From assembly GCA_017993235.1 (NCBI GenBank), contig JAGONC010000002.1, forward strand, positions 44,683 to 108,682: 64,000 nt of DNA, written 5' to 3'. The stretch comes from Lentimicrobiaceae bacterium. Lineage in GTDB: Bacteria > Bacteroidota > Bacteroidia > Bacteroidales > JAGONC01. The position numbers and the translations under genes are program-made. Below, in pieces: positions 968-7,078 of this stretch. Positions within the stretch are counted from its first letter, which is position 1; each line of letters starts with the position of its first letter. The notes beneath the pieces were generated by a model. It worked only from the letters and a program-made list of their open reading frames with translations, did not search any database and was not told where the DNA came from.

Positions 968-1039
968 TGCGGGGTGGAGCAGAGGTAGCTCGTTGGGCTC
1001 ATAACCCAAAGGTCATAGGTTCGAATCCTATCCCCGCTA
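968..1039 (+). tRNA. tRNA-Met (anticodon CAT) with initiator-type features
   Basis: Hand-folded cloverleaf: acceptor 968-974/1032-1038, D arm GAGC/GCTC, anticodon stem TTGGG/CCCAA with loop CTCATAA, T arm ATAGG-TTCGAAT-CCTAT, discriminator A1039. The three G:C pairs closing the anticodon stem and the 1:72 mismatch (T:T) are initiator hallmarks. CCA is not encoded. Confidence 0.9.
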
Positions 1040-1040
1040 C
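998..1040 (+). repeat. Direct repeat copy 1 (attL-like), lying inside the intact tRNA-Met
   Basis: CTCATAACCCAAAGGTCATAGGTTCGAATCCTATCCCCGCTAC is identical over 43/43 bases to 6989-7031. Confidence 0.9.
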
Positions 1041-1046
1041 TCTTTG

Positions 1047-1076
1047 AAAGTCCTATATTATAGGACTTTTTTTATT
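1047..1076 (+). terminator. Rho-independent terminator after tRNA-Met
   Basis: The stem AAAGTCCTAT/ATAGGACTTT has a 3-nt loop and is followed by TTTTTTTATTTT. Confidence 0.75.
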
Positions 1077-1091
1077 TTAGAAAATTCTCGT

Positions 1092-1103
1092 GGAGTAAGG
1101 AAT
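1092..1103 (+). repeat. GGAGTAAGGAAT motif at the left end of the island
   Basis: The exact 12-mer recurs in the same orientation at 6906-6917, with near copies at 6863-6874 and 6875-6882. Confidence 0.7.
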
Positions 1104-1134
1104 TTTAACAATTTTATGATCATCTCACCGTAAA

Positions 1135-1335
1135 CTATTCAGGGAAAATCTTCAAACTCGCCGTCTTTTTTACAGCTTCACTTTGCGCTATATAATGTTT
1201 CTGCACCACATCATCATTGCTATGATCGCTTATGGTAGTAGTTATAGACATACCAAATGTAATCAGCAACCAACAATGTTCAGAAAATGGTAAATAAGGA
1301 TGGACAGTTTGGTCACCAATTAATCCAAAATCCAT
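1135..1335 (-). pseudogene. Possible C-terminal remnant of a tyrosine recombinase
   Basis: In the 66-aa ORF, ..VHPYLPFSEHCWLLITFGMSITTTISDHSNDDVVQKHYIA.. loosely follows the box II layout of Bacteroidota integrases (H-x-x-R...G-x-S-I....L-G-H-x-N....Q-x-Y). The catalytic Arg is not conserved. The ORF lies immediately downstream of the tRNA att site. The similarity is weak. Confidence 0.3.
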
Positions 1336-1338
1336 TTG

Positions 1339-1629
1339 ATGATAACGATACCGATAGGTGTTATAGATAATGCCGAAGATGTTGAGCGCTTTTTCATTCT
1401 GTTACATCGGGCGGGAATTCTTTTTTATCCGGACAATTCATTTTACGATTATTACGAAATGAACGAGAATGGGGAAAAAGAACCATTGTTTTGCGACTAT
1501 GAGGCCATGCGTCTTGATCGGCTAATGCATATATGTTTGTATATGCACGACGAAAAAATCATTAATTTATGGCGGATAGCAGAACAAACCCAATTAATAA
1601 TTATTGGTGATCTTAAACGCAGGAATTGA
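1339..1629 (+). CDS. Hypothetical small protein
   Basis: This 96-97 codon ORF has non-repetitive composition and no motif I recognise. It abuts the divergent ORF at 1335. Confidence 0.35.
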   Translation: MITIPIGVIDNAEDVERFFILLHRAGILFYPDNSFYDYYEMNENGEKEPLFCDYEAMRLDRLMHICLYMHDEKIINLWRIAEQTQLIIIGDLKRRN

Positions 1630-5562: not shown

Positions 5563-5726
5563 AATCAGTGAATTAATAACTCCCCTAAATTACGAAAAAA
5601 TTATGAAATAGAAAAATAAATGATAATCAGATCATTCAAGTGAGGGACTTATTTTATAAGCGTAGTGATTTTGGGGATGAACTAATAGATACAGAATAAT
5701 AATCCATTCGTATGACACATTAGATT

Positions 5727-6297
5727 TTAATTCGAAAGATATAATCGTTCCCAATTATATTTTGCAATTCTGTGTCTTTTGGCAACAACACCATATTCGT
5801 TCATTACATTTTTATAGAGAGTTTTAATGGGTTCGTTTATATGCTCGCCAACAATTTCTGCAAATGCACGATTTAATATATCTATTTCTTCATCTGTAAC
5901 ATCGGTAAATCCTAATTCAATACTTTCTCTGACCTAGCTGACAAACATACCACTATAAAATCCGTGTAGTTTGTGCCTTTTTAACATACTCGTCAGCATG
6001 ACACCAGATATATATATTGTTCTGTTTCTTTGATAAAACTTCAGCCATTGTGTCATCCACGACGAATACAAACCATATGATCCCACTGTTTGGGTCTGGA
6101 TAAAATCTGTCATTCGCGCATAATCCGTTTCTTGTTCCGTGACCGCAACATATAATCCTTTCATACATCCCCATCAAATGGCGGAGATGTCTACGGGTAA
6201 TACCCCCATCGATAACAGATTTTTTGGGGATGTCTTTATATATATCACATAGAAATCCTGTTGTAACATCTTTTGGATGAACGATCAAAGTATTCAT
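5727..6297 (-). pseudogene. Disrupted gene of unknown function (one frameshift plus an in-frame TAG)
   Basis: ORF 5953-6297 (..IYIWCHADEYVKK..) overlaps ORF 5934-6164, which ends ..HGFYSGMFVS*. Reading past the TAG at 5934-5936 in the same frame gives 68 more sensible codons (VRESIELGFTDVTDEEIDILNRAFAEIVGEHINEPIKTLYKNVMNEYGVVAKRHRIAKYNWERLYLSN), ending at the TAA at 5727-5729. Confidence 0.5.
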
Positions 6298-6326
6298 AAA
6301 TGAGATAATAGATTATGAAATGATGT

Positions 6327-6746
6327 TTAATTCAATATCCAGCGGGGGAATAAATCCTTAAAATTCTTTCTCTTCCATTCATATATGGCGTTAACCAATT
6401 TTTTGTATGTGTTTTTTTCACCGGCGATAACTTCGCTTGTCCACCTGACAAATTCTTGATGGACAAGATCCAGCAGCTCCGTCTTATCTTGCACACCGCC
6501 AAGCTGAAGGAGGATCGTGGCGGTCTCAGGATCATAGGCGTCTTCAGATAAACCAAAATTGATGAAATGAAGAATATCGTATTTGGTAATAAAGTCCTTT
6601 AATTGTTTGAAAGGTGTTCTATATTTTCGTTTTATCGAATTAATATCCAATCCCGTTACAAGATTTTGGTTTATTCGTTCGATAATAAGTTGATAGAAGC
6701 AGAAAGATGGGATTTGGTTTTGGCGGGGCTTATTGGATTGAGACAT
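6327..6746 (-). CDS. Hypothetical protein (island cargo, adjacent to attR)
   Basis: This is a 139-aa non-repetitive ORF with no motif I recognise. Confidence 0.5.
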   Translation of the reverse strand: MSQSNKPRQNQIPSFCFYQLIIERINQNLVTGLDINSIKRKYRTPFKQLKDFITKYDILHFINFGLSEDAYDPETATILLQLGGVQDKTELLDLVHQEFVRWTSEVIAGEKNTYKKLVNAIYEWKRKNFKDLFPRWILN

Positions 6747-6862
6747 AGGAGATGTCTGGATTGAAAAAAGGGCGCTAAACTAAGCGCTTATTTTGGATTG
6801 CGCAGCATATCCGCTAAAATAAAGGAGAATTTACACCCTGGATTTTTGTGATAGAATGAAAT

Positions 6863-6917
6863 AGAGTAAGGAATGGAGTAAGAAAAAAAGGTAGATTTTG
6901 ATATTGGAGTAAGGAAT
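6863..6917 (+). repeat. Cluster of (A/G)GAGTAAGGAAT motifs at the right end of the island
   Basis: AGAGTAAGGAAT lies at 6863-6874, GGAGTAAG at 6875-6882 and GGAGTAAGGAAT at 6906-6917. All share the orientation of the copy at 1092-1103. Confidence 0.7.
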
Positions 6918-6988
6918 ATTGAAAAACTTGGTTTTGTAATTAATTGATATATAAATTAATACAAACACAATAATTCCTATACATCGGT

Positions 6989-7031
6989 CTCATAACCCAA
7001 AGGTCATAGGTTCGAATCCTATCCCCGCTAC
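6989..7031 (+). repeat. Direct repeat copy 2 (attR-like): an orphan 3' fragment of tRNA-Met
   Basis: This copy matches 998-1040 at 43/43 bases. The upstream sequence (..ATACATCGGT) cannot form the 5' half of a tRNA. Confidence 0.9.
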
Positions 7032-7078
7032 AAAAAAACGATGGCCCGGAAGAGAAGTTTTCCGGGCTATTATTTTTC
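7032..7078. terminator. Bidirectional hairpin terminator
   Basis: An A7 run is followed by the stem GCCCGGAA/TTCCGGGC (7044-7051/7060-7067), then TATTATTTTT. It could serve both the displaced tRNA fragment (+) and the convergent gene ending at 7099 (-). Confidence 0.7.

Follow-up and report, generated by a model that had tools for sequence, protein, structure and literature searches.

Genomic islands that enter tRNA genes by means of a tyrosine recombinase are well described, among them the P4-like islands and the Bacteroides elements NBU1 and NBU2, whose targets are the 3' ends of the genes for tRNA-Leu and tRNA-Ser; the direct repeat that flanks NBU1 is 14 bp long. Here we describe a 5.95-kb island in a 64,000-nucleotide stretch of the Lentimicrobiaceae bacterium assembly GCA_017993235.1 (contig JAGONC010000002.1, positions 44,683 to 108,682 of the forward strand; hereafter the window, with coordinates counted from its first base). 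The island shares with these systems its entry into the 3' part of a gene for a tRNA, this part being duplicated as attL and attR, as well as an integrase gene beside the att site, repeats in arm positions, a deviant base composition, and accessory cargo. It differs in that the target is an initiator tRNA-Met gene, the integrase is a stub of ~40 codons, the repeat is 43-46 bp long, and no mobilisation gene (relaxase or oriT) is seen.

A further comparison is offered by the cis-mobilizable elements (CIMEs) defined in work on streptococcal integrative and conjugative elements (ICEs) and integrative and mobilizable elements (IMEs) (PMC5704250). As in a CIME, attL and attR are kept, with perfect cores and four arm-type motifs, and genes for recombination and transfer have been lost; scans against Pfam, NCBIfam and PHROG give no relaxase, coupling protein or excisionase family match in any open reading frame (ORF) of the island. 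By the same likeness, the island is predicted to be able to serve as a landing pad, or to be co-mobilised, when a related element arrives. The host here belongs to the Bacteroidales whereas CIMEs are described in Firmicutes, no accretion with a second element is seen at the island, and a conjugative or mobilisable parentage is only a candidate.

We conclude that positions 1041-6988 are very probably the decayed remnant of a Bacteroidales integrative element whose tyrosine recombinase, of ~430 amino acids, directs integration into the 3' half of CAT-anticodon tRNA genes, in most cases that of the initiator. An initial annotation, made from the letters of the window, had proposed a degenerate island integrated in an initiator-type tRNA-Met gene, and the direct repeat, the GC content, the empty sites of relatives, and the integrase stub all agree with that proposal. 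The decay of a mobile element that leaves its cargo behind is a biologically ordinary outcome of a very well known kind, of which this is an unusually clear example.

ARAGORN calls a single tRNA in the window, tRNA-Met(CAT) at 968-1040 on the plus strand, and the Rfam tRNA model RF00005 matches 968-1039 with 67.6 bits. In its sequence and fold, three G:C pairs in a row form the base of the anticodon stem (GGG/CCC), A11 pairs with U24, and position 1:72 is left unpaired (U.U). The G:C trio, the 1:72 mismatch and A11:U24 are the traits that define initiator tRNAs, and by these traits the gene is of initiator type; it also appears far closer to the tRNA-fMet of Escherichia coli than to the elongator tRNA-Met of that species. 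The segment from the anticodon loop to the 3' end of the tRNA, 998-1040, recurs at 6989-7031 with all 43 bases identical, as the initial annotation had reported, and the repeat grows to 46 bp if one mismatch is allowed (G997 versus T6988), the second copy then beginning at 6986. No tRNA 5' half stands ahead of the second copy, and ARAGORN calls no tRNA there. An exact repeat of 43 bp in 64 kb cannot be due to chance. The one base that differs (T6988) falls on the side of attR that faces the element, which is expected if attP had its own tRNA-like copy. Two different hairpin terminators had also been described, and a terminator scan recovers both, at 1046-1070 behind the intact tRNA and at 7040-7071 behind the displaced 3' part. 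Homologous hairpins of the form TTGAAAGTC...GACTTTTTTTAT stand at the place matching the first of these in the related elements L027, L028 and L029; the presence of a foreign terminator on the initiator tRNA gene of this genome is explained by the island.

The composition of the island changes sharply at its boundaries, with a GC content of 0.363 in 1041-6988 and 0.482 in 7032-64000. GC is lowest (0.29-0.33) over ~1750-3750 and is 0.31 in the segment 6747-6988; the exception inside the island, at 0.438, is the ORF for a protein with a FISUMP domain. The island had been described as AT-richer than its flanks and a plot of GC had been proposed as a check, and the compositional break is indeed real. 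Also as described, all island genes but one lie on the minus strand, the sole plus-strand ORF being 1336-1629 (with an ATG at 1339). A scan of metagenome contigs of the Joint Genome Institute (JGI) with the 43-mer returned 13 loci, three of which (L023, L012 and L021) come from relatives of the host. In these three the genes for Era, tRNA-fMet, a MORN protein, dihydroorotase and a GT2 protein are contiguous and the insert is absent, so that the insert-free alleles sought by the initial annotation do occur in related genomes. In L023 the tRNA and the stop codon of the MORN gene are just 76 nt apart, and the tRNA is identical between the window and all three. A scan of representative genome contigs with the MORN protein, among which the species is absent, gave a single match, distant and irrelevant. 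Amino acid identities to the window proteins are 83% (Era), 75% (MORN protein), 81% (dihydroorotase) and 89% (GT2) for L023, and 80%, 60-63%, 70% and 88-90%, respectively, for L012 and L021. To the right of attR the window has the layout of the native terminator of these relatives, namely an A-run, a hairpin, a T-run, and the MORN stop codon; this layout is shared and its sequence is not conserved. A horizontally acquired segment of 5.95 kb is delimited exactly, which is useful for annotation.

The sequence just inside attL belongs to a previously unnamed family of Bacteroidales integrases, brought to light here, that targets tRNA-CAT genes. In L020 (extended as L024) a hairpin terminator comes after the tRNA, then the two motifs GGAGTAAGGAA and GGAGTGAGGAA, and then a 443-amino acid ORF that reads toward the tRNA and encodes a tyrosine recombinase (PF00589, 34.5 bits against a cut-off of 27.1, with SAM-like N-domain matches). 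Integrase homology searches gave 31 relatives (P0003-P0033), among them Aquipluma nitroreducens AQPE_1748, the full-length ones being ~430-440 amino acids long; members of the family exceed the PF00589 gathering score and match PHROG integrase families. In six of six contexts the integrase gene lies beside a tRNA-CAT gene, and in four of them next to era: L024, L026, L028 and L031/L032 have it at the tRNA-fMet gene next to era, L027 (Aquipluma) has it at a tRNA-fMet gene, and L029 at a different tRNA-CAT gene. All six share an attL layout in which the tRNA comes first, then a hairpin supplied by the element (often TTGAAAGTC...GACTTTTTTTAT, the form also present in the window), then a pair of GRGTRAGGAA repeats with a 13-nt period, and last the integrase stop codon. 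The window fits this layout, with the corresponding features at 1040, 1046-1076, 1092-1103 and 1135, and has one repeat versus two in the relatives. This attL signature of an element-borne hairpin and GRGTRAGGAA repeats could be used to find and delimit islands in metagenome-assembled genomes, and many islands that bear it carry restriction-modification and other defence-type cargo.

What the window retains of the integrase beside the att site is its last ~40 codons. The best match is to P0018 (72.5% identity over 40 amino acids; tblastn E 1.5e-17 to 2.8e-14), the C-terminus of the L020 integrase is 48% identical over 42 amino acids to the end of ORF 1135-1335, and the DNA of the stub is 78% identical over 91 nt to the 3' end of the L029 integrase gene. 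Thirty of the 31 family integrases match the window, with their C-terminal 29-45 residues only, at 1138-1269. The C-terminal motif of the family is SDHSN..VV.KHY..Q.EAVKK...L+IF; the stub keeps SDHSN..VV.KHY, with what we take to be the final catalytic His and Tyr of the tyrosine recombinases, and everything upstream of this motif is gone. Searches of the 64 kb with the family integrases found no further integrase fragment or homologue, and no homologue of the ORF of 107-119 amino acids that, in intact family members, overlaps with the start codon of the integrase. The six-frame search with hidden Markov models that the initial annotation had recommended did not reveal the stub, since a Pfam scan of 1041-1960 returned nothing; the stub is too short for such a model and was recognised only through the related L020 element. 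The accompanying statement that no intact integrase is present therefore stands for the gene, although its 3' stub is there. Judged by its sequence, the stub in ORF 1135-1335 proves both the recombinase origin of the island and its decay.

No attR was found within 10 kb of the integrase in four intact relatives (L024, L027, L028 and L031), so the intact elements exceed 11 kb, and the 5.95-kb island in the window is therefore a deletion derivative. Common to the island and the family are the C-terminal motif, the element-borne terminator, the GRGTRAGGAA repeat, and an integrase read toward a tRNA-CAT gene. Intact members, in contrast, have the ~430-amino acid integrase, the overlapping ORF of 107-119 amino acids, and more than 10 kb of content, whereas the island lacks both genes. 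Their integrase-proximal cargo consists mostly of type I restriction-modification, methylase, helicase, RadC and similar genes, together with transposase genes, as against the surface-related cargo of the window, and no conjugation or mobilisation genes lie within 10 kb of the integrase at the six related loci. The family is mobile elsewhere, judging from L024 and L025, which come from different samples and contain the same element, 99.98% identical over 9.4 kb and with 100% amino acid identity of the integrase. Their only two differences form a compensatory change from a U:A to a C:G pair in the anticodon stem of the tRNA-fMet, just outside the core, and could reflect either a different host tRNA or an attP-type copy. 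We note that the integrase nearest to the stub (P0018, in L029) sits at a non-initiator tRNA-CAT gene, and that a degenerate copy of the 5' half of this tRNA stands before it, which matches it up to and including the anticodon, diverges beyond, and may be the scar of another integration event.

Repeats of the GRGTRAGGAA type also mark both ends of the island. The exact 10-mer GAGTAAGGAA occurs in the 64 kb at 1093, 6864 and 6907 only, all at the island ends, and the four arm-type motifs of the island all have the same orientation. In L024, L027, L028, L029 and L031, tandem pairs of GRGTRAGGAA take up the corresponding position, with the terminator on one side and the integrase stop codon on the other. 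Because of their position and conservation we regard these repeats as putative arm-type binding sites of the integrase. A GC-rich bidirectional hairpin with T-runs on both strands stands at 6770-6789, directly upstream of orf139 and before the arm sites of attR, and could insulate the element from read-through from the flank. An ORF of 45 amino acids in the attR arm gave no database record when looked up.

The order of events may be reconstructed as follows. A circular element would have carried an attP that included a 46-nt tRNA copy, beginning at the anticodon loop and running to the 3' end, and its integrase, bound to GGAGTAAGGAA arm-type sites predicted on both sides of the core, would have recombined attP with the chromosomal tRNA-fMet gene. 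At attL the tRNA would thereby have been rebuilt with the 3' copy and the terminator of the element, and at attR the native 3' part and its native terminator would have been moved 5.99 kb downstream. A deletion after integration would then have removed the integrase, save for its last ~40 codons, together with the small ORF that overlaps it, and probably also most of the original content, since each of the four intact relatives is longer than 11 kb. Decay also reached another backbone gene, for a protein of 189 amino acids, which has gained a frameshift and a stop codon. What remains are two perfect att cores, four putative arm-type sites, intact orf97 and orf139, and three cargo genes preceded by a conserved leader. 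On its own the island is unable to excise; movement would require that a sibling element supply the cognate integrase, and the island therefore resembles a CIME. Coordinates of all features are given in the table.

Table. Features of the island and its boundaries, with window coordinates and the evidence for each.
Feature	Position	Strand	Evidence and remarks
Intact initiator-type tRNA-Met(CAT)	968..1040	+	ARAGORN, Rfam, fold; 3' part from the anticodon loop would be re-supplied by the element
attL core, left copy of the 43-bp repeat	998..1040	+	Exact identity with 6989-7031
Element-borne hairpin terminator, now used by the tRNA	1046..1076	+	Terminator scan (1046-1070); related hairpins in L027, L028, L029
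Putative integrase arm-type site GGAGTAAGGAAT, attL side	1092..1103	+	Exact 10-mer; position as in the family
Tyrosine-recombinase 3' stub, ~40 codons	1138..1260	-	tblastn against family integrases; inside ORF 1135-1335
orf97, small backbone gene	1336..1629	+	TTG start; homologous block ~1326-1774
GNAT N-acetyltransferase, 312 amino acids, intact	1954..2892	-	PF13527 Acetyltransf_9, E 1.4e-12, residues 6-136; GC 0.32
CE4 / NodB-type polysaccharide deacetylase, 336 amino acids, intact	2905..3915	-	PF01522 Polysacc_deac_1, E 2.5e-21
Secreted fibre-like protein with C-terminal FISUMP domain, 544 amino acids, intact	3928..5562	-	PF09603 Fib_succ_major, E 3.1e-35; TIGR02145
Conserved leader or promoter region before the cargo operon	5556..5680	-	74% over 128 nt to L037
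Pseudogene of the 189-amino acid backbone protein	5730..6297	-	Six-frame reading
orf139, intact helical protein, paired with the 189-amino acid gene	6327..6746	-	Homologues in L034/L037 and L033
Cluster of three putative arm-type sites, attR side	6863..6917	+	AGAGTAAGGAAT at 6863, GGAGTAAGAAAA at 6875, GGAGTAAGGAAT at 6906
AT-rich, element-derived spacer between arm sites and core	6918..6985	.	Sequence
attR core, displaced native 3' part of the tRNA	6989..7031	+	Repeat identity; no tRNA called
Native tRNA terminator left at attR	7040..7071	+	Terminator scan; layout as in empty-site relatives
Predicted attB junction			GTTGGGCTCATAACCCAAAGGTCATAGGTTCGAATCCTATCCCCGCTACAAAAAAACGATGGCCCGG
Predicted attP junction			ATACATCGGTCTCATAACCCAAAGGTCATAGGTTCGAATCCTATCCCCGCTACTCTTTGAAAGTCCTATATTATAGG

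Three genes at the two ends of the cargo are counted as backbone. A Bacteroidales metagenome-assembled genome (GCA_035342335.1; L034-L037) has homologues of orf139, of the 189-amino acid gene (orf189) and of orf97 arranged as in the window but with other cargo, which identifies the three as recurrent backbone genes of mobile elements. The arrangement there is an orf139 homologue (45%) with a paralogue, an IS3 element, the leader (74% to window 5556-5680), an OMP-FISUMP-SBBP operon, DUF4314 and small ORFs, the orf97 homologue (73%), and an unrelated recombinase of 196 amino acids. The product of orf97 is 73% identical to that of a 105-amino acid ORF in the mobile region of L034/L037, the DNA being 76% identical over 454 nt, and it has no match in Pfam, NCBIfam, PHROG or PADLOC. 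The frame of the pseudogene at 5730-6297 is shifted once, at an A-run behind codon ~107, and is interrupted once by a GAG codon turned into TAG; intact homologues of 188-189 amino acids (P0034, P0035 and P0036, with 80%, 65% and 62% identity at 100% coverage) align at these two lesions with H or N and with E. The product of orf139 has no family match and is 45% identical to that of the ORF directly upstream of the intact 188-amino acid gene in L034/L037; a homologue search gave two near-identical matches only, and its AlphaFold2 model is of low confidence (pLDDT, the per-residue confidence score, 53).

On the viral contigs of IMG/VR the 189-amino acid family has 204 confirmed relatives. Of these, 80 loci (L042-L121) were retrieved; many of their contigs are 100-330 kb long, and 19 of the 80 have a DUF4314 gene nearby. 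No Pfam, PHROG or PADLOC model covers the family (P0034-P0042). The AlphaFold2 model of P0034 is confident (pLDDT 92.5), and its best matches in the PDB are to caspase-1 and procaspase-1, weakly (E 2e-3, TM ~0.4); the GHG and C-x-A-D motifs, invariant in the family, would fit a His/Cys dyad.

The cargo consists of three intact genes. The product of 1954-2892, named 'GNAT family N-acetyltransferase' at NCBI, had been called FemAB-like, a description that finds no support: neither Pfam (PF02388) nor the FemAB-related NCBIfam models match it at E <= 0.1, PF13527 being its only match, and it has no sequence relative in the PDB. The NodB deacetylase and the FISUMP protein of the initial annotation are both borne out by their domain matches (PF01522 and PF09603). 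Sub-threshold NCBIfam matches of the deacetylase are to the PgaB, IcaB and PdaB models, and its PDB sequence matches are to polysaccharide deacetylases. The FISUMP protein has an N-terminal signal peptide, read from its sequence, and two central WG.HALAGYL repeats that match tail-fibre families of PHROG (E 2e-19). L031/L032 (2711-4225) encodes another FISUMP protein, this one with a Pfam PTL_trimer match, on the same strand as the family integrase and 6-7 kb from it; over the full length it is 38% identical to that of the window. The leader upstream of the cargo is 74% identical over 128 nt, start-codon context included, to L037 12432-12559, upstream of the OMP-FISUMP-SBBP operon, and this shared leader looks like an expression cassette for variable surface proteins on mobile elements. 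The cargo plausibly modifies or decorates the cell surface, going by its domain families; the earlier description of it as envelope-related is reasonable to that extent, those families being its sole basis. PADLOC finds no defence-system match among the island proteins.

Several observations weigh against the interpretation of the island as a decayed member of this integrase family. The empty sites come from other species and not from the same population, and the only other genome of the species (GCA_028718285.1) is also occupied, with 99.99% identity over 16.7 kb; contig JAHZTK010000121.1 of GCA_020047475.1 is 100% identical to the window. No complete family member with both ends was recovered, and the architecture on the attR side and the membership of orf139, orf189 and orf97 in this family are therefore presumptive. 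In L034-L037 these backbone genes travel with the unrelated 196-amino acid recombinase, and the island may be a mosaic of two (or more) element types. The FISUMP gene, with its host-like GC (0.44), may also be a later acquisition.

The alternative that survives best, which we nevertheless consider unlikely, is that the island is a functional CIME or satellite-like hitchhiker, lacking an integrase and excised and re-integrated in trans by that of a sibling element. CIMEs are documented as a concept (PMC5704250), both 43-bp cores are perfect, and the four arm-type sites in one orientation remain; the family is also live elsewhere, as the identical integrase beside two tRNA-fMet variants that differ by a compensatory pair attests. 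Logan contigs from four sequencing runs all start exactly at window position 6818, and L033 contains a variant of orf139, 89% identical, that diverges from the window upstream of ~6800; these observations hint at alternative arrangements and suggest a recombination breakpoint, or a co-existing variant, at ~6790-6820 between orf139 and the attR arm. The 64-kb window, however, contains no family integrase, the island occupies one and the same site in the two genomes available for the species, one of its backbone genes has already decayed to a pseudogene, and contig breaks in the 43-bp repeat are expected from assembly with k=31. No attB or attP junction was found, the exact attB search of the JGI metagenomes giving 0 matches, which is uninformative since the species is absent from that collection.

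We give still less credence to a more elaborate form of such mobility, in which the islet is alive as an integrase-less hitchhiker, its complete cores and arm sites being retained to let integrases of sibling elements move it, with an exchangeable surface cassette, made up of the conserved leader and variable FISUMP, OMP and glycan-modifying genes, that is swapped among Lentimicrobiaceae and other Bacteroidales. Were this so, these bacteria would have a shared system for swapping cell-surface proteins, and the cassette is found with a different recombinase in L034-L037.

That the island is instead the remnant of a prophage, with the FISUMP protein as a former tail fibre and the small genes as phage accessory leftovers, appears very improbable. 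The tail-fibre matches of the central FISUMP repeats would fit such an origin, as would the IMG/VR viral contigs that carry relatives of the FISUMP protein and the 204 relatives of the 189-amino acid pseudogene family, the latter often near DUF4314 genes. Yet Pfam and PHROG reveal no capsid, terminase, portal, replication or lysis gene in the island, the integrase family has no match in IMG/VR, no phage structural genes lie within 10 kb of the integrase in the six contexts, and, apart from a patch of 149 nt, the DNA resembles none of 50,697 phage records. Scans of viral contigs with the core repeat, orf139 and the integrase gave nothing, and a plasmid DNA search with the island gave no meaningful match. 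FISUMP proteins with signal peptides are, moreover, ordinary chromosomal paralogues in this phylum.

A tandem tRNA gene or an old fixed rearrangement as the origin of the second copy can be dismissed with near certainty, because the attL flank matches intact elements, being homologous to the integrase end of mobile elements elsewhere, and the attR flank has the native-terminator layout: tandem tRNA-Met duplications do occur, and L029 has its degenerate 5'-half copy upstream of the tRNA, but the relatives have a single tRNA directly followed by the MORN gene, the copy at 6989 lacks any 5' half, and GC breaks sharply at the island boundaries.

Two further loci deserve mention beside the decayed element of the window. 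L015 (MWWI01000176.1) was considered as a second island and rejected; it has two complete tRNA-fMet genes, 6,244 nt apart, inside a tandem duplication of 6.25 kb that is 99.98% identical, on a contig with a terminal overlap of 127 nt, and the duplication is most likely an assembly artefact. L013, an unrelated metagenome contig, has an orphan tRNA-fMet 3' half at 4290-4332, where no tRNA is called; it lies downstream of FISUMP and LamG-type genes and lacks the GAGTAAGGAA motif, and is probably the attR of a different decayed element.

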